Below, in pieces: positions 4,833-48,649 of a stretch of 51,598 nucleotides of DNA. Position 1 is the stretch's first letter. Every line of letters starts with the position of its first letter. The notes under the pieces were generated by a model. The model was not told where the DNA came from and did not search any database. It saw only the letters and a program-made list of their open reading frames with translations. A program made the translations under genes and the position numbers. The stretch is from a virus: positions 1-51,598 of the IMG/VR virus record IMGVR_UViG_3300018466_000001. One strand, written 5' to 3'.

Positions 4833-5057
4833 TTAGTGCAGATTGAGCACGGCTGCATATGCGGACACCTTCACGCGGAAGCCTTTTAGGGTTGAGCAAA
4901 GGAAATCATCCGCGCCGGGCACGGCAACCCACCGTCCGTCGCTTTCTTCGCCTTCGTAGCGGAAAAGACCAGGAACACCGCGTTCGCATCGGTATGAGTT
5001 GAGCGGTGCATCCCAGTAGAGAAAACGTTCTGTTTGAAACGTACCTGTAGCGGTCAC
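4833..5057 (-). CDS. Hypothetical protein (74 aa)
   Basis: ATG at 5057 overlaps the upstream stop (ATGA). Confidence 0.5.
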   Translation of the reverse strand: MTATGTFQTERFLYWDAPLNSYRCERGVPGLFRYEGEESDGRWVAVPGADDFLCSTLKGFRVKVSAYAAVLNLH

Positions 5058-5608
5058 GTCCCACCCCTCTTCTTCTTGCGGAGTTGCTGTTCTTTGGTCA
5101 CGGGAGCGCGGGGAGCAAGCCCAACTCCACCCATAGATTGCGGTAACTGCGCCACGCAGCCTCCGACGCCCGCCGCTGGCGCATCCTCGCGCTCTTGCGC
5201 ATCCGCCGGGTCAGGATTCGAGGGGCGGCGATTATGAGTACGTCCGGAGCCAGCAAACCCGTTTCCCGCATCCGCACTCGCATCCTCGCGTGTCTCTTGC
5301 TCATCGGCTACCGAGTGTGCGGAGGCGGCGAAATCGTGACCTTCCCATCGGGGTCCACGGCGATGTTCAGGCTGCACGTCAGGCTCAGGTCTGCGCACTG
5401 GCGCATGAACATGCTCAGGCCCGTGCGATTGAGCGCCACCGTCTCTCCGGACCTCACCTTCGCGATGATCTCTTGCGCCGTTGCCACTGTACGCCTCCAC
5501 GGCTCTTCGGATGTACTCTGAGCGACTTACGCGGTCTGCGTAGGCCCTGTCGTCCCAGCGCTGCCACATATCCTCTGGCACAACGATGGTGCGGCGGTTG
5601 TCAGCCAT
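5054..5608 (-). CDS. Ribbon-helix-helix (CopG/Arc-like) domain protein with a long charged tail; small-terminase or regulator candidate
   Basis: Internal ATG at 5608. MADNRRTIVVPEDMWQRWDDRAYADRVSRSEYIRRAVEAY fits the RHH pattern. Confidence 0.5.
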   Translation of the reverse strand: MADNRRTIVVPEDMWQRWDDRAYADRVSRSEYIRRAVEAYSGNGARDHREGEVRRDGGAQSHGPEHVHAPVRRPEPDVQPEHRRGPRWEGHDFAASAHSVADEQETREDASADAGNGFAGSGRTHNRRPSNPDPADAQEREDAPAAGVGGCVAQLPQSMGGVGLAPRAPVTKEQQLRKKKRGGT

Positions 5609-9135: not shown

Positions 9136-9588
9136 ATGGGCAAGATGAACACCACTACCGTCACCTCCTGCCCCCTCTGCGGCGGCAACCTCTCCCCGGC
9201 CGATGCCGGAACCCGTTCGCAGTGCGACAACTGCGGGGCCAAGGTCAACGTCGTGACCGTCGAGCCCGGCGACCCCGATCCCATGACGGCCGAAGCCGTG
9301 ATCCGCTCCGCCCTGACGGCGCTCCTGCGCGTCCCGCTCACCTTTGACGCGAGCGAACGCTACCGGTACGAAGCGGACGCCACCATCCAAGAAGTCCGGA
9401 TCGGCTTGGGCAAGTGGTTGGATGGCCACGCAGATGCGGAGGAGGAGATGCGCTTTGACGCCTTCGCCCGCGACGTGAAGCGCCGCGCCCCCTTCGGCCG
9501 TGCGTGGACACCTTCCAACCTGCGTCCCCTGTTCGATGCAGGGCGTACGGTAGATGAGGTGCTGACCATGAAGCCCGAGGGTCGCTGA
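9136..9588 (+). CDS. Zinc-ribbon protein (150 aa) ending in MKPEGR
   Basis: ATG at 9136 with GGGAG upstream. Has CPLCGG...CDNCG. Its C-terminus is encoded by the conserved junction repeat. Confidence 0.55.
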   Translation: MGKMNTTTVTSCPLCGGNLSPADAGTRSQCDNCGAKVNVVTVEPGDPDPMTAEAVIRSALTALLRVPLTFDASERYRYEADATIQEVRIGLGKWLDGHADAEEEMRFDAFARDVKRRAPFGRAWTPSNLRPLFDAGRTVDEVLTMKPEGR

Positions 9589-23853: not shown

Positions 23854-23882
23854 TTGACAAGACCGACGAGAGGCGCTAGACT
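23854..23882 (+). promoter_or_regulatory. Near-consensus promoter TTGACA-17-TAGACT driving the RNA island
   Basis: GAGTGTTGACA is shared with the promoter at 30504. Spacer is 17 nt. Confidence 0.6.
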
Positions 23883-23888
23883 GGTATT

Positions 23889-24353
23889 CAGCAAGCGGGG
23901 CAGGGTGGGGCTGTCGACAGCCCAATGGCGTGAATCCCTTCGCCTATCCACGTGGACTTTGAATCGGGTGCCACGGTACCGCCAGATTAAGTTGCACGGT
24001 CCGGCCGCCAAGAGGGGCCGCCCTGTCCCGCGTCTTTGTTGGTGGAGGGGAGAGTAGTACCGAAGCGCACGCGCTAGGTGAGACGTGGCAGGTCCGGCCC
24101 GAGAGGGTGACAATGCGGCCTCCGTCGCGCCGCTCTGCTGGAAAGCCGCCGTTTTGTTCGGTGGGCCGAGAGCGCCAGATTCCCGCGTGTGATGGAGCCG
24201 GGTAAATCGGGCATGGCGTACGTTGATCCGGCCTCTTCGTGCCGGGGAGTAGAAGCGTGTTCGGGGCCGGCGAAAGTGCAGCTAGGGACATGCGCAAGCA
24301 CCATGCGGCGGATTTGCTGCGTCGCACCCCCTTCACCTGAGCGGAGAACGACG
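23889..24353 (+). ncRNA. Candidate structured non-coding leader/ncRNA (about 465 nt)
   Basis: No credible ORF follows the strong promoter. GC-rich with many local inverted repeats, including the perfect 16-nt palindrome GGGCTGTCGACAGCCC at 23908-23923. Confidence 0.35.
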
Positions 24354-24584
24354 ATGGGCGACGTGCGGCAGGACATAACGGAGGAACAGGCCGAGTGGCG
24401 CATACGCAACGACGAGCCTACCTTCGCTGAGGTCTACGGCAAGCGGGTGCGCATCGTGGAGATGGGACCGCCGCCCAAGCGGACCGGCGAAATGCGACTC
24501 GTAACGGCGTGGCACGGCGGCAAGTTCCACACTCCGCGATTCTTCGCCCACAACTTTGGCAAAGAGGACGCACGGATAGGTTAG
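24354..24584 (+). CDS. Hypothetical protein (76 aa)
   Basis: ATG at 24354 with GGAG 9-12 nt upstream. Sequence begins MGDVRQDITEEQAEWRIRNDEPTFAEVYGKRVRIVEMG... Confidence 0.45.
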   Translation: MGDVRQDITEEQAEWRIRNDEPTFAEVYGKRVRIVEMGPPPKRTGEMRLVTAWHGGKFHTPRFFAHNFGKEDARIG

Positions 24585-24894
24585 CATCGGTTGCCCACGG
24601 GCCGTTAGGCGCAGGCGCCATCGTGGGACAAATGATTTGCGGTGCAGAACGCCGGCAACACAGGGCTCAGTGCAGGATGGAGCGCCAGTCCTGCCTGCAC
24701 GCAACCTTTGGGGTGGGGCTTCACCTGAGCGAAGGCGACCGTGCGGTGTTTAGTCAAGTACATAATTCCGAAAGGATTCAGGGTCCGGTGGGAATCAGCC
24801 GTGCGACCGTGGGATTAGAAGACCACAGCAAAGGGCAAGTGACCGCAGGCCGGGAGGCGACAGGAGCGCGCGACCGCTCCACCCGGCACCACAT

Positions 24895-25012
24895 GGAGGG
24901 CGTGGGCAAACTGGTAAAGCCGACGCGCAGAGCGGATGATTCTGGACGCGGAGCGCCGCTAGGCCAGCGGTAAGCACGATCCGGATGCGGGTTCGACCCC
25001 CGCCGCCCTCCC
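24895..25012 (+). ncRNA. Aberrant 118-nt tRNA-like element (8-bp acceptor stacked on a 5-bp T-arm)
   Basis: GGAGGGCG pairs with CGCCCTCC. T-arm is GCGGG-TTCGACC-CCCGC. D-like arm is GGC-AAACTGGTAAA-GCC. An 84-nt non-canonical insert contains the hairpin CCGCT-AGGCC-AGCGG. Confidence 0.4.
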
Positions 25013-25118
25013 TTCACCCGGTGTTCCCGTACGTCGCCCGGTCAAGGCCGATCCTCGCACCTAAGCGGGGCGGAAATGCAAAGTGGACGGCTCGCGTGCG
25101 GGGCATCGGGGATCTCTT

Positions 25119-25131
25119 GGAAACAGTTTCC
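25119..25131. repeat. Palindrome copy 6, GGAAACAGTTTCC
   Basis: In the ORF-poor RNA island. Extended match TGGAAACAGTTTCCGG is shared with copy 7. Confidence 0.9.
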
Positions 25132-25291
25132 GGAGCAGACGGTACCAAGCGAGAGGGGCGCGGCGGCGTCCGGTACGAGAGAACATGGGAGCCTGCCGGC
25201 GGAAAAGCCTCGCAAGAGGCGCAACCCCATAGACTGAGGCTGGTAGCGGGGTGGGGAATCCCGTCTCTCGTTTGGTGTGTCGCTCATCTGT

Positions 25292-25304
25292 GGAAACAGT
25301 TTCC
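25292..25304. repeat. Palindrome copy 7, GGAAACAGTTTCC
   Basis: In the RNA island, 97 nt upstream of tRNA-Gln. Confidence 0.9.
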
Positions 25305-25400
25305 GGCGGGCGGTCTACCGGTACGGTGCCGGGAGCCGAAAGGCCACGGAGCGCAGCGCTGCGTTGATCACGCCTAACCCCGTAGGCCGTCCGCCACGTT

Positions 25401-25472
25401 CGCCCTGTAGCACAACGGTTGTGCGCCCGCCTTTGGAGCGGGAGGTTCTCGGTTCGAATCCGAGCAGGGCAG
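25401..25472 (+). tRNA. tRNA-Gln (anticodon UUG)
   Basis: Hand-folded cloverleaf. D stem GCAC/GTGC, anticodon stem CCCGC/GCGGG, loop CTTTGGA, T arm CTCGG-TTCGAAT-CCGAG. Has a C1/A72 mismatch and G73. No CCA encoded. Confidence 0.85.
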
Positions 25473-25831
25473 TTGGGTGTTGGCGGTAAATAGACCGCCT
25501 GTCGTTTGGAGCTACTGGGAACCGCGCGTTCTGTTCACGGCCCGGACGCTGGTAGCCTGCGGAGGAAGTCCGGATAACACGGCGAAGCGGATGCGCCAGC
25601 CGCCGGGAATCTCCAGAGTCGATACCAGACGGCACCGCCAGCACCCTTTGTCCGCCCGCTCTGTCGCGACAGTGCCTAGCATGCGGGGCTAGGCGAAACC
25701 TGATGGAGTGGGCCACGGTGAAATCGGCTGGAGTGCGGCGTAGGAGCCTTGCGCAAGCGCCGTCGCCAGCCTCCCAAAAGGGCGCCGTGGCTCACAGGTT
25801 TCCACCTCACCAAAACACTCAAGAAATCCCA

Positions 25832-26752
25832 ATGAGCGACGGCCGGCTACACTCCTACCCGAAGGTCTGGAACCTGGGGCATCCTAACCTTGCCGAACTG
25901 TTTTCCGGAGAGGTGGTGGTGCAGGAGAAGGTGGATGGTTCGCAGTTCTCCTTCGGCGTGGTTGGCGGGGTCCTCCTGCTCCGGTCGAAGGGTGCCACGC
26001 TCTACCCGGAGACGAACGACAAACTGTTTCGGGGTGCGATTAACACCGCCGTGCGGCTCTTCAACGAAGGATTGCTGCCGGAGGGTCTGACGTACCGAGG
26101 CGAAGCGTTCATGAGCCACAAGCACAACGCGCTCGCATACGAACGGTGCCCAGCGGGGAACTTCGTGCTCTTCGACGTGGACGATGGCCTAGAGAGCCGA
26201 TTCGACGCAGCGCGCCTGCGTGACGAGGCCGCGCGGCTGGGGCTGGAGGTGGTGCCTACGTACTTCGTGGGGGAGGTCGAGTCTCTGGAGGGCCTGCAAC
26301 CCTTCCTCGCGACTCCTAGCGTGCTGGGCGGGCGCACAGAGGGCATGGTGGTGAAGAACTACGCCCGACGGGGTCGCGATGGCAAGATGCTGATGGGGAA
26401 GTTGGTGGCGGACGATTTCCGCGAGATCAACGGCAAGGAGTGGAAGAAGAGCAACCCCACCCGCGCCGACGTGATTGAAACGTTGATCGAACGTTTCCGC
26501 ACCGAAGCGCGGTGGGCCAAGGCGGTGCAGCACCTTCGCGAGCGTGGGGAGATCACAGGCGATCTGCGCGACATCGGCAAGTTGATCCGCGAGGCTCCGC
26601 AGGACGTACGCGAGGAGTGCGAAGACGAGATCAAGCAGGCGCTCTTTGACGCGTTCTGGAAGGACATCTCCCGTGGCGTGACTCGCGGGCTTCCGGAATG
26701 GTACAAGGCGCAGGTTGCGGGTGAGCAGGTGTTCGCGGGCCCGGAGCCTTAA
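25832..26752 (+). CDS. ATP-dependent RNA ligase-like nucleotidyltransferase
   Basis: Motif I QEKVDGSQ (KxDG), YRGEAF, FVLFDV, motif IV/V-like TEGMVVKN and GKLV. Start placed at ATG 25832 (MSDGRLHSYPKVWNLG) and is uncertain. Confidence 0.75.
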   Translation: MSDGRLHSYPKVWNLGHPNLAELFSGEVVVQEKVDGSQFSFGVVGGVLLLRSKGATLYPETNDKLFRGAINTAVRLFNEGLLPEGLTYRGEAFMSHKHNALAYERCPAGNFVLFDVDDGLESRFDAARLRDEAARLGLEVVPTYFVGEVESLEGLQPFLATPSVLGGRTEGMVVKNYARRGRDGKMLMGKLVADDFREINGKEWKKSNPTRADVIETLIERFRTEARWAKAVQHLRERGEITGDLRDIGKLIREAPQDVREECEDEIKQALFDAFWKDISRGVTRGLPEWYKAQVAGEQVFAGPEP

Positions 26753-27308: not shown

Positions 27309-28082
27309 TCACCCCTCCACGAAGCAGCCGCAGCCGCCAATATCGTATTCGTCCACGTCGCCGCAGGACACGCGGGAGCGGAGTACCGAGAGCGGCAGGG
27401 GCTTCGTGGTGCCGCCGCGCCTGTCGCGCAGGATAGCGACGTTGCCGATTTGGGCACGTAGCATGTTCTCGTTTCTCTCCCACTCCGCAAACACGTCCGG
27501 CAGAGTGCGCAGTAGATGGGCGAAGTGGCCCTGCCCCGCCTTTACGCAGCCGCCGCCGCAGTTGTTGTGCGCGAACCCGAGTTTGTAGAGGCGCGGAACC
27601 TCGATACCACAGGCGGCAAGGTCTTCCAGAATATCCTCTTTCATCCTGTACGGCGCATCGCACAGGGGGGCCTCACAACGCCATCCGGGGCGGTTCTTCC
27701 GCACGCCTTCAAGGCGGTGCTCTTCGGTCCAGTCGATGCCGTAGTAGAGCACCGTGTCTGCCGGATCGCAGTTGGCCTCCGCCCACGCGTTTGACACGTT
27801 TTGTTTAAGCTTTATCGAGCAGTGGGCCACTCTGGAGTTACCCAAAAACCCCTTTTTGCCGTGAGTACGAAACACCTCCCACGGCGTGCGGCCATCGGCC
27901 AGGATCAGTAATTCGGCCCCCACATCGCGCGCTGCTTCTCCCAAGAATCGGTACAGGTCTGCGTCCTCAATGAGGGTGTCGGTGAAGAGCAGCACCATAT
28001 CCGCCGTCCCGAATCTCTCCGCAACGCGCTTGGCGGCGGCCCAAGACCCTACTCCGCCGGAGAACATGACAACGTGTCTCAC
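27309..28082 (-). CDS. PP-loop ATPase, PAPS-reductase-like family
   Basis: GTG at 28082 (GTGA overlap). Has VVMFSGGVGSWAAAKRV (SGGxxS PP-loop), LLFTDTLIEDADLYRF, and Cys clusters NNCGGGC and GGCGCF. Confidence 0.7.
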   Translation of the reverse strand: MRHVVMFSGGVGSWAAAKRVAERFGTADMVLLFTDTLIEDADLYRFLGEAARDVGAELLILADGRTPWEVFRTHGKKGFLGNSRVAHCSIKLKQNVSNAWAEANCDPADTVLYYGIDWTEEHRLEGVRKNRPGWRCEAPLCDAPYRMKEDILEDLAACGIEVPRLYKLGFAHNNCGGGCVKAGQGHFAHLLRTLPDVFAEWERNENMLRAQIGNVAILRDRRGGTTKPLPLSVLRSRVSCGDVDEYDIGGCGCFVEG

Positions 28083-28879
28083 AAGAGCACCGCCGTCCTC
28101 TCCGCGCGTGCTGCGCTCAGCACTTCCTCGCCCCACTCGCATACGTTGGTCTCTGAGCGCCGCTTTGCCACCGTCAGGGCACGTTCGGCCAGTTCCGCCG
28201 CTCTCGGGTAGTCTCGCATGATCGTGGCGGCCACAGACGCGTGCACGAGGTTCCTTGCCGCGTGTTCGTGGTGGGGGAGTCCAGCGAAGATGAAATCCAG
28301 GGCCACACCCGCGCTGCGGTACTTGTTGGGCGACGACATCAGGGCTGCCGCGTACATGGCGTTCGCGGCAGCGGCCATGTGGAACCTGGGGTGATCCATG
28401 CTGACCGGAACGACTCGCCATGCGTGGAAGGCGTGCGAGGCGCTGTCCCTGCACTGCGGATGGGCGTACATCGTCTCCTCTGCGAAGTCGGCAAGCAGGC
28501 CGGTGATCTGCGGGGCCTTCCTGTTCCGCTCGGAGTACAGTTGGAACGCCTTCGCTCCCCACTCCCTGCGTGCCTTGGGAATCCGCGCCTCCTTGCCTGT
28601 CACGTACAGATCGTGAAGGCTCGGCCCTATCCAGTGCGAGAGGCCATGCCCCACGGCCACGGCCATCGCTTCCTGAAAGCAGGACAATGCCTGCTTGGGC
28701 TCTGCCCTGGACAGGTACACGCGGCCCAAGCAGGCGAAGGCGTGATACGCCACTTCCGGCACCTTCTCGGCGTCCGCTTCCGACAGCGCGGCAGCAACGG
28801 CCATCTCGCATGCGGGCAGGTCTCCGTCTCGGCGTTCTTGCCGGGCGGATGCGAGGAGGATTTCTGCGTTGGAAATCAT
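28079..28879 (-). CDS. All-helical, TPR-like repeat protein (266 aa)
   Basis: ATG at 28879 (ATGA overlap, inside palindrome copy 8). Ala/Leu-rich helical repeats. Confidence 0.45.
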   Translation of the reverse strand: MISNAEILLASARQERRDGDLPACEMAVAAALSEADAEKVPEVAYHAFACLGRVYLSRAEPKQALSCFQEAMAVAVGHGLSHWIGPSLHDLYVTGKEARIPKARREWGAKAFQLYSERNRKAPQITGLLADFAEETMYAHPQCRDSASHAFHAWRVVPVSMDHPRFHMAAAANAMYAAALMSSPNKYRSAGVALDFIFAGLPHHEHAARNLVHASVAATIMRDYPRAAELAERALTVAKRRSETNVCEWGEEVLSAARAERTAVLL

Positions 28880-28883
28880 TTCC
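28871..28883. repeat. Palindrome copy 8, GGAAATCATTTCC
   Basis: Contains the ATG of the TPR-like gene (GGAA ATG ATT TCC = MIS). Confidence 0.9.
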
Positions 28884-29133
28884 GATGAAAGCGAATGGAT
28901 TCGCCTGCCACGTAGCGGTCCTGCACTGCGGAAACACCGAAGCCGGGAACGCCGAGAGTGGCGCAGCGCATGTTGCAGGCGGACGAGTGATTCATCTGCG
29001 TGCCGTTTGGGTTGGCCCAGCAGCCCGCACAGCAGTAGGCGAGCGCGGCGGCCTTCGGGCGGCCACAGCCGCAGGTGTCCGTGGCGACCTCGTTGCCTGC
29101 CGCGTCCAGCAGAGGCGGATACGGCTTGCTCAC
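28876..29133 (-). CDS. Cys-rich small protein (85 aa)
   Basis: TDTCGCGRPKAAALAYCCAGCWANPNGTQMNHSSACNMRC. ATGA coupling at both ends. Confidence 0.5.
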   Translation of the reverse strand: MSKPYPPLLDAAGNEVATDTCGCGRPKAAALAYCCAGCWANPNGTQMNHSSACNMRCATLGVPGFGVSAVQDRYVAGESIRFHRK

Positions 29134-48469: not shown

Positions 48470-48555
48470 CCCGTGGCCCTGTGTCCCGTGTCTCCCTACA
48501 TGGTCTCAGGCGCCGGGACAGCGCTCTTCAGGAGCTACCCTAGAGACCATTTAAG

Positions 48556-48627
48556 GCGCGGCGGAGGGATTCGAACCCGCCCGGCGGTAGCAACCTAGCG
48601 CTACCGCTTCCCACTTCTCTCGCCGCA
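48556..48627 (-). ncRNA. 72-nt tRNA-like element lacking a canonical D-arm and anticodon loop
   Basis: Acceptor UGCGGCG/CGCCGCG, T-arm GCGGG-UUCGAAU-CCCUC (one mismatch), and a central 8-bp hairpin GCGGUAGC-GCUAGGUU-GCUACCGC. Confidence 0.45.
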
Positions 48628-48649
48628 CCGGTCTTTACTTCATACCTGC

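Follow-up and report, generated by a model that had tools for sequence, protein, structure and literature searches.

A tRNA-shaped element without a canonical anticodon arm, close to an RNA ligase gene in a soil phage

Phage transfer RNA (tRNA) genes are usually interpreted as helpers in codon usage or as replacements for tRNAs that are cut by host defences. The known tRNA mimics are the tRNA-like domain of transfer-messenger RNA (tmRNA), the YrlA RNAs and the mitochondrial t-elements, and the stable RNAs of phage T4 are still unexplained. Here we analyze a 118-base gene whose tRNA frame, referred to as the element, is at positions 24895-25011 (plus strand) of IMG/VR record IMGVR_UViG_3300018466_000001, a complete virus record of 51,598 bp with direct terminal repeats; this whole stretch is referred to as the window, and the carrier is a soil phage. 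The element is an anticodon-disabled tRNA shape of the leucine type with an RNA ligase gene next to the RNA operon in which it lies, and no catalogued family matches this combination. The reading that we favor, with a probability of about one half, is that the element encodes a tRNA-shaped RNA which does not decode, derives from a class II leucine tRNA, is selected for its upper half and is processed by tRNA enzymes.

The tRNA-like domain of tmRNA, including two mini-tmRNAs reduced to this domain (L026 and L037, see below), shares with the element a non-decoding upper half, its occurrence in phages and the proximity to RNA ligase genes, but the element has a true D stem, a G3-C70 pair and no CCA. 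The possibility that the element itself is a tmRNA was rejected, given that G3-C70 stands where G3:U70 would be expected, that there is neither a tag frame nor CCA, and that neither ARAGORN nor Rfam yields a tmRNA match. An earlier reading of this DNA, made from the sequence only, had already noted that a UCA loop and a tmRNA-style tag are missing; in agreement with this, ARAGORN run in tmRNA mode found nothing, even at relaxed thresholds. What the YrlA-type bacterial and phage Y RNAs (RF02553; 10.1101/312249) have in common with the element is that they are non-decoding tRNA mimics in neighborhoods of RNA-repair genes. In YrlA RNAs, it is the Ro-binding stem that carries the free ends, the acceptor being closed, whereas the element's own ends form the acceptor. 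A Ro60/Y RNA system was also rejected, as there is no RF02553 match on the element and no Ro60/TROVE gene in the phage.

The T4 stable RNAs rnaC and rnaD (species 1 and 2) resemble the element in their length of 119-139 nucleotides (nt), in their unexplained function and in their location within a phage tRNA cluster, and rnaC additionally has a canonical T arm near its 3' end. Neither has a D arm or an acceptor frame like that of the element, and a covariance model built from the element alone (hereafter R1) assigns 11.3 bits to rnaC. The mascRNA of MALAT1 is a non-decoding tRNA-shaped module that is cut by RNase P and RNase Z and sets the ends of neighboring RNAs. The plant mitochondrial t-elements (PMC1920247) are likewise non-decoding tRNA-shaped modules which are embedded in longer transcripts and cut by RNase P and RNase Z. 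Both systems are eukaryotic or organellar, whereas the present element belongs to a phage, where such processing is only proposed. To our knowledge, no bacterial or phage family of t-element-like processing signals has been catalogued.

The tRNA frame and its leucine-type upper half

The window was searched with a strict descriptor that combines an acceptor of 7-8 bp (with at most one G-U pair), U8 and a D arm containing A14 and GG with a 5-bp T stem that includes G53 and C61, encloses a TTCRA loop and abuts the acceptor. The only match in the window is the element, and no match was obtained in 300 first-order Markov randomizations of the window, both strands included; the tRNA frame is therefore real, beyond chance. 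All 16 base pairs of the frame are Watson-Crick pairs, and U8, A14, R15, G18, G19, A21, G26, U48, G53, T54, T55, C56, R57, A58 and C61 are all retained. The sequence-only reading had reported the main blocks of this frame, and these are in place: GGAGGGCG (24895-24902) pairs perfectly with CGCCCTCC (25004-25011), the resulting terminal stem abuts the T arm GCGGG-TTCGACC-CCCGC (24987-25003), and the D-like arm GGC-AAACTGGTAAA-GCC (24905-24921) follows U8, forming a 3-bp stem with an 11-nt loop. The hairpin CCGCT-AGGCC-AGCGG, which was also reported, is present at 24956-24970, where it caps a long variable arm.

Standard annotation passes over the element. Default ARAGORN does not call it as a tRNA, the Rfam tRNA model (RF00005) yields no match on it at E-values up to 10, and default ARAGORN together with Rfam at gathering thresholds identifies only a tRNA-Gln(UUG) in its surroundings. 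The element lies in non-coding RNA: when scored with a codon model derived from the genes of this phage, every open reading frame between 24585 and 25700 has a negative score. One of the frames around the element, 24509-24973 (98 aa in the public assembly), overlaps it and could be cited for the view that the element is part of a protein-coding gene or a chance array of GC-rich complementary blocks; its codon score is negative as well and its GC content at third codon positions is flat. Together with the empty randomized windows, this already contradicts such a view, to which we assign a negligible probability.

The terminal stem of eight pairs stacked on a T stem of five was taken by the sequence-only reading as the geometry of bacterial tRNA-Sec. 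Eight pairs can indeed be drawn, but alignment to tRNA-Leu genes and to L144, the chromosomal relative described below, places the acceptor at the 7-bp GAGGGCG/CGCCCTC and reads the additional, outermost G-C pair as one between leader base -1 and the discriminator at 73. Because complementarity between -1 and 73 also occurs in 6 of the 21 ordinary tRNA-sized genes of the phage loci, the 8+5 geometry, although literally present, is not diagnostic. The resemblance to tRNA-Sec (RF01852) extends to a 13-bp coaxial stack of the acceptor and T stems, provided that G-1:C73 is counted, and to a long extra arm, and tRNA-Sec is the only Rfam clan match on the element at permissive thresholds. This match reaches 15.7 bits against a gathering score of 47, with an E-value of 8.8, and it employs another, mismatched 5' strand. 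Moreover, tRNA-Sec has a 6-bp D arm with a 4-nt loop and G73, whereas the element has C73, no 6-bp D stem and no UCA. The related allo-tRNAs have 8/4 or 9/3 acceptor branches, that is, 12 bp in total with a shortened T stem (PMC5389517), compared to the 5-bp T stem of the element and the 13-bp branch that this reading would require. Thus, the defining features already contradict the view that the element is tRNA-Sec, a Sec-like RNA or a relative of allo-tRNAs, and we regard it as highly improbable. At the level of sequence, G-1 and C73 are both encoded and a U precedes G-1; if G-1 were retained after RNase P cleavage, the acceptor would resemble that of tRNA-His.

The affinity of the element is with leucine tRNAs. 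R1 assigns about 35 bits to tRNA-Leu(UAA) genes in the genomes of Rhodobacteraceae and Thermoleophilia, and in the tRNA cluster of phage T4 it ranks tRNA-Leu (33.1 bits) above tRNA-Ser (22.3) and the class I tRNAs (11.6 or less); in each set searched, true tRNA-Leu genes outrank other true tRNAs. A pattern scan for the D arm combined with the T loop across the genomes of 185,579 species retrieved two loci, namely a tRNA-Leu(UAA) gene of Thermoleophilia and L144. The D arm is identical to that of the Thermoleophilia tRNA-Leu(UAA) at 17 of 17 bases, and the match to tRNA-Leu(UAA) of Rhodobacteraceae amounts to 16 of 17 bases in the T arm and 6 of 7 in the acceptor. Given the ranking by R1 and the match of the D arm, the upper half of the element is, on sequence grounds, identified as that of a class II leucine tRNA. 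The features held in common with bacterial and phage class II tRNA-Leu (RF00005) are the 7-bp acceptor, U8, G9, the 3-bp D stem with a long, 11-nt loop, G26, and the long variable arm followed by a single nucleotide and the T arm; tRNA-Leu genes are also the closest match in sequence. The differences are the lack of a canonical anticodon arm, a variable arm of 45 nt as opposed to about 13-21 nt, and C at the discriminator position (25011) instead of A73, which bacterial leucyl-tRNA synthetase requires.

The core fold and the missing anticodon arm

As the sequence-only reading stated, there is no standard anticodon arm. In register, the anticodon slot comprises 19 nt (compared to 20 in a normal tRNA); only two of the five stem pairs are present, positions 33 and 37 are A and C, and the triplet at 34-36 is GAG. 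When single deletions were scanned exhaustively, no product had a 5-bp stem, or a stem with four of five pairs, together with U33 and R37. Since a canonical anticodon arm is not restored by any single excision, the element is no simple case of an interrupted tRNA. The RNA cannot decode as encoded. One could still conceive of an unusual decoding tRNA, either with a nuclease-removed insert and resealing by the neighboring ligase, whose gene begins 690 nt downstream, or with a non-standard anticodon loop. ARAGORN in intron mode does propose a tRNA-Pro(AGG) with a 31-nt insert, but the modeled anticodon stem has three pairs and two mismatches, position 37 is C, and a 16-nt variable region is left unpaired. 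The hairpin loops available in the core, CGGAUGA and UAGGCCA, both lack U33, and with the negative results of the deletion scan and of the Rfam tRNA model, we consider a decoding function very unlikely.

With the acceptor, D and T helices fixed, the minimum-energy fold of the element has a free energy of -51.6 kcal/mol, compared to -45.5 kcal/mol for the hairpin arrangement of the sequence-only reading. The favored model has a predicted class II layout, with G26, the 19-nt slot, the 45-nt variable arm, U48 and the T arm in succession, and under the frame constraint the pairs of the variable arm have probabilities of 0.83-0.98. The helix at 24924-24950, previously put forward as the best one of the core, is present in the sequence but has a near-zero probability once the frame is imposed (Table 1). 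The two folds are mutually exclusive, as this helix uses TTCTG, which in the long arm pairs with the ATCCGGA segment. The proposed pseudoknot between CGGAT and ATCCG fares similarly: the complementarity is there and the interaction is possible, but it depends on the less stable fold, because its hairpin is excluded by the long arm, and the rival nested fold that uses ATCCGGA is the more stable one.

The nearest relative, selection and decay

The best match of R1 is the L144 element (47.5 bits), well above any true tRNA-Leu. It occupies positions 5338-5433 of JAHQVS010000281.1, a Rhodobacteraceae metagenome-assembled genome (MAG), and is a 96-nt class II tRNA-shaped gene directly upstream of tRNA-Met, in an ordinary chromosomal neighborhood (L28, MeaB, Sir2 and an SPFH protein). 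The two elements have six of the seven acceptor bases in common, with one compensatory change (G5-C68 to A5-U68), as well as U8, G9, G26 and the T stem; the likeness of the D arm and the T loop is what the scan pattern selected for. The unconstrained minimum-energy fold of L144 is a class II cloverleaf in which a GGAA tetraloop closes a 7-bp stem in the anticodon slot, with GAGA at the end of the variable arm. L144 is a separate case of this frame carrying a disabled anticodon, and shows that such RNAs exist elsewhere. It differs from the phage element in its chromosomal location, in its short arms, both with GNRA caps, and in its encoded A73-CCA as opposed to C73 without CCA; it also has G3:U70, which with A73 and CCA corresponds to an alanine or tmRNA-type identity, and its Rfam tmRNA score of 28.6 bits is below the gathering threshold. 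An apical GGAUG loop initially considered to be common to both elements was dropped, because folding pairs these bases in L144. BLAST detected the L144 element in 1 of the 401 genomes sampled from its family, that is, in its own genome only; a further 32-nt match is inside a coding region and was dismissed as chance.

The phage element retains the complete upper half, namely the 7-bp acceptor, U8, a D arm whose G18 and G19 form the elbow, U48 and a canonical T arm, and its anticodon arm is gone. Because the damage is confined to the decoding part, with several independent features lost in the anticodon slot and none elsewhere, we take it to point to selection on the upper half only. The departure of C73 from leucine identity, the anticodon-disabled state of L144 as the nearest relative, and the presence of other non-decoding tRNA shapes in this phage and in its ligase-bearing counterparts argue in the same direction. 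Under the proposed mechanism, the element would be transcribed from the promoter at 23854 within an RNA of about 1.6 kb that is mostly non-coding. RNase P, the 3' tRNA-end processing machinery and the CCA-adding enzyme all recognize the upper half alone, and the host would therefore be expected to excise the element, with putative cuts at 24894/24895 or 24895/24896 and near 25011. Such excision would punctuate the transcript, separating the mRNA of the small open reading frame and the upstream RNA from the c4-2-like RNA and tRNA-Gln, and would release a stable RNA of about 117-121 nt that is unable to read codons. Speculatively, the freed RNA could act in trans as a mimic for a protein that recognizes the upper halves of tRNAs, in a conflict over tRNA damage and repair that also involves the neighboring ligase.

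Several observations weigh against this reading. The core fold is ambiguous between the two mutually exclusive arrangements, and the stability of the core does not exceed that of shuffled sequence (z = -0.55, compared to -1.57 for the whole element). With C73 and no encoded CCA, the RNA may or may not be aminoacylated. The association with the ligase is one of proximity, in a phage that has no Ro60, no AAA_33 kinase and no CCA-adding enzyme. An intact upper half would equally result if a functional tRNA-Leu gene had recently been rearranged once, with no need for selection. The element is known here from its sequence, so that expression and processing are predictions. Finally, the collections searched contain no close phage relative, and the only other contig, from an independent Logan assembly and located by exact-protein look-up, is identical across 6.2 kb around the element and provides zero variants that could reveal conservation or covariation in the core or in the gene.

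The searches behind the latter statement were of several kinds. Neither blastn nor nhmmer matched the element in 140 fetched loci, and blastn found nothing in the phage collection. Exact and degenerate pattern scans of IMG/VR, using the T arm plus acceptor, a relaxed 3' end, or the D arm plus T loop, returned only chance or unrelated matches. R1 was applied to 121 genomes of Rhodobacteraceae and to 151 from the class to which the Thermoleophilia MAG (G002) belongs; besides L144, it gave only matches of tRNA-Leu size. Among proteins, the best relative of the RNA ligase in IMG/VR and metagenomes is 54% identical, and searches with the terminase and with the product of the open reading frame at 27309-28937 retrieved no relatives.

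The alternative to which these reservations lead is that the element is a recently disabled, functionless pseudogene of a tRNA-Leu, perhaps tRNA-Leu(GAG), in which the anticodon and variable regions have undergone one or a few rearrangements and the upper half of the molecule is intact because too little time has passed. The near-normal length of the slot, the leucine anticodon triplet in register, the unexceptional stability of the core, the orphan status of the element in the searches performed and a discriminator incompatible with leucine identity are all compatible with decay. Nevertheless, at least five canonical features (three stem pairs, U33 and R37) have been lost within 17 nt, whereas the upper half, with about 44 constrained positions, has lost none, a distribution that is unlikely under uniform decay. 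Furthermore, L144 is disabled too, in an orderly manner with tetraloop caps, a second tRNA-shaped RNA that lacks a D stem is encoded in the same phage (at about 48.55-48.63 kb), and non-decoding tRNA-like RNAs are present in other ligase-bearing phages. On balance, we consider the pseudogene a serious but unlikely explanation.

If the element is, as we favor, a selected non-decoding RNA, it retains what tRNA-processing and tRNA-binding proteins recognize while being unable to decode, and would thus exemplify a second use of the tRNA shape, either as a processing handle or as a protein-binding mimic. Far more tentatively, and at a probability that we consider low, one could envisage a hitherto undescribed class of anticodon-disabled, leucine-type class II RNAs of phages and, occasionally, bacteria, which mature like tRNAs, carry acceptor identity sets for synthetases that ignore the anticodon, and serve away from the ribosome, alongside phage RNA ligases, in conflicts over the cleavage of host tRNAs, whether as decoys, as sensors or as carriers of amino acids. 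Judging by sequence, the identity sets under this scenario would be the histidine-type G-1:C73 in the element and the alanine-type G3:U70 with A73-CCA in its Rhodobacteraceae relative. If it is true that such RNAs are aminoacylated or bind the ligase, they would connect tRNA mimicry to RNA repair in the conflict between phages and their hosts, in a way that can be tested.

The phage locus and other tRNA-shaped RNAs

The phage is siphovirus-like, encoding a large terminase, a major head protein and a tape measure protein. No tyrosine or serine recombinase was found among its proteins; for this reason, and because the tRNA frame is complete, the interpretation of the element as an attP site or an integration-site remnant was rejected. 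The features of the locus are listed in Table 1. Downstream of the sigma-70-type promoter, a stretch of about 1.6 kb, mostly non-coding, contains the small open reading frame, the element, the c4-2-like RNA, tRNA-Gln and a terminator-like hairpin. Neither the PDB nor NCBIfam provided a match that would specify the sub-type of the RNA ligase. Kinase-phosphatase and CCA-enzyme partners were dropped from consideration, no polynucleotide kinase (AAA_33) or CCA-adding enzyme gene having been found in the phage.

Table 1. Coordinates of the element, its parts and neighboring features in the window
Feature	Position	Strand	Remarks
Promoter, sigma-70 type, TTGACA-17-TAGACT	23854-23882	+	would drive the RNA-rich stretch
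Small open reading frame, 76 aa	24354-24584	+	no family match; only open reading frame with coding signal between promoter and ligase gene
G-1	24895	+	pairs with C73 (25011), apparent eighth acceptor pair; preceding base (24894) is U
Acceptor 5' strand GAGGGCG, tRNA positions 1-7	24896-24902	+	perfect Watson-Crick pairing with 25004-25010
U8, G9, D arm GGC-AAACTGGTAAA-GCC, G26	24903-24922	+	retains A14, R15, G18, G19 and A21
Anticodon-slot segment, positions 27-44 by register	24923-24940	+	predicted 3-bp hairpin only
Alternative helix CGCG-CAGAG-(CGGATGA)-TTCTG-GA-CGCG	24924-24950	+	pair probability about 0 in the tRNA frame; about 6 kcal/mol worse; excludes the base of the long variable arm
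Over-long variable arm, 45 nt	24941-24985	+	imperfect helix capped by CCGCT-AGGCC-AGCGG
U48 and T arm GCGGG-TTCGACC-CCCGC	24986-25003	+	G53, T54, T55, C56, G57, A58, C61
Acceptor 3' strand CGCCCTC and discriminator C73	25004-25011	+	CCA not encoded; next bases CTT
c4-2-like small RNA	25312-25390	+	RF02944, 34.4 bits, below gathering score of 41, E = 4.6e-5
tRNA-Gln(UUG), canonical	25400-25473	+	default ARAGORN, Rfam at gathering threshold; CCA not encoded
Terminator-like hairpin	25482-25499		follows tRNA-Gln
RNA ligase gene	25703-26752	+	PF09414, phrog_548; independent gene call starts at 25832

The leaders of the element and of tRNA-Gln both contain CCAC-R-T at -7 to -2, and a 16-nt box (14 of 16 bases alike) is common to the segment preceding the element and the c4-2-like RNA that precedes tRNA-Gln. 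The matching leaders and the recurrent box suggest two cassettes, each consisting of a small RNA and a tRNA-shaped 3' handle. A second c4-2 copy upstream of the element was considered and dropped, because only the box and a similar leader are present, Rfam gives no hit and the fold differs. The 3' end of the c4-2-like antisense-type RNA is about 9 nt before tRNA-Gln, so that RNase P cleavage of tRNA-Gln would set its 3' side.

The wider occurrence of tRNA-shaped RNAs was assessed with a looser descriptor in 111 non-redundant phage and metagenome loci around ligase homologs (651 kb), all of them ligase-bearing. It retrieved 26 tRNAs called by ARAGORN and 4 tRNA-shaped elements that ARAGORN does not call, compared to an average of 0.45 in shuffled sets; two of the four are the mini-tmRNAs and a third, L030, has an Rfam tRNA score of 41.3 bits. 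These counts suggest an enrichment of tRNA-shaped elements near ligases, within a comparison set that consists of ligase loci only; phages that are not related to each other have them in the vicinity of RNA ligase genes. Because standard tRNA finders and Rfam miss the present element and ARAGORN misses others, RNAs of this kind are under-counted in phage annotation.

The two mini-tmRNAs, L026 (4265-4342) and L037 (5666-5745), are RNAs of about 80 nt on unrelated phage contigs, with Rfam tmRNA scores (65.7 and 67.4 bits) that exceed the gathering threshold of 47. They consist of the tRNA-like domain without the mRNA-like domain and have G3:U70, A73 and UUCGAC as the analog of the D loop, with CCA in L037, and they are located 250-800 nt downstream of RNA ligase genes, beside ordinary tRNAs. 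Another locus, L046, was found by R1 and contains a 109-nt long-armed tRNA-like RNA (4889-4997) that starts 4 nt past the stop codon of the ligase homolog. Folded without constraints, this RNA adopts a cloverleaf of four arms, which includes a -1:73 pair, a bulged 7-bp arm with the loop UUGAAAA, and a 26-nt variable arm; the T loop is UCCGAAU, and there is no Rfam match. The L038 locus has a 96-nt class II tRNA with an 8-nt anticodon loop, which Rfam accepts as a tRNA. On the minus strand of L140 (IMGVR_UViG_3300017569_000116), a single low-GC phage contig, there are two tRNA-shaped elements of about 72 and 137 nt (5035-5110 and 2045-2181) that lack canonical anticodon arms and both use the acceptor GGAGGGC/GAGGGCG, like the present element.

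The second tRNA-shaped RNA of the phage itself, at about 48555-48628 on the minus strand, is closed by a long, GC-rich stem, contains the T loop GGTTCGAATCC, lacks a D stem and scores 15.2 bits with R1. A T-arm-like CCCTG-TTCGATG-CAGGG closed by an 8-bp stem is found at 9498-9552 (plus strand), inside a coding gene, and is most likely due to chance.

Several short repeats and complementarities surround the element. The 16-nt palindromic box TGGAAACAGTTTCCGG is present in two exact copies on the plus strand, 25118-25133 and 25291-25306, which are 173 nt apart and sit between the element and the c4-2-like RNA; it may serve as an operator or a processing site. The box CTTCACC(TGAGCG) occurs three times on the plus strand: in the ribosome-binding region of the small open reading frame (24326-24346), 390 nt further (24714-24734) and directly after the 3' end of the element (25008-25021). 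The 13 nt at 25027-25039, located 15 nt downstream of the element, are 92% complementary to the first codons of the small open reading frame (24356-24368), and 24723-24735 is complementary to 24421-24433 within the same frame. Both complementarities may reflect cis-antisense control of this frame, or else chance in GC-rich sequence.

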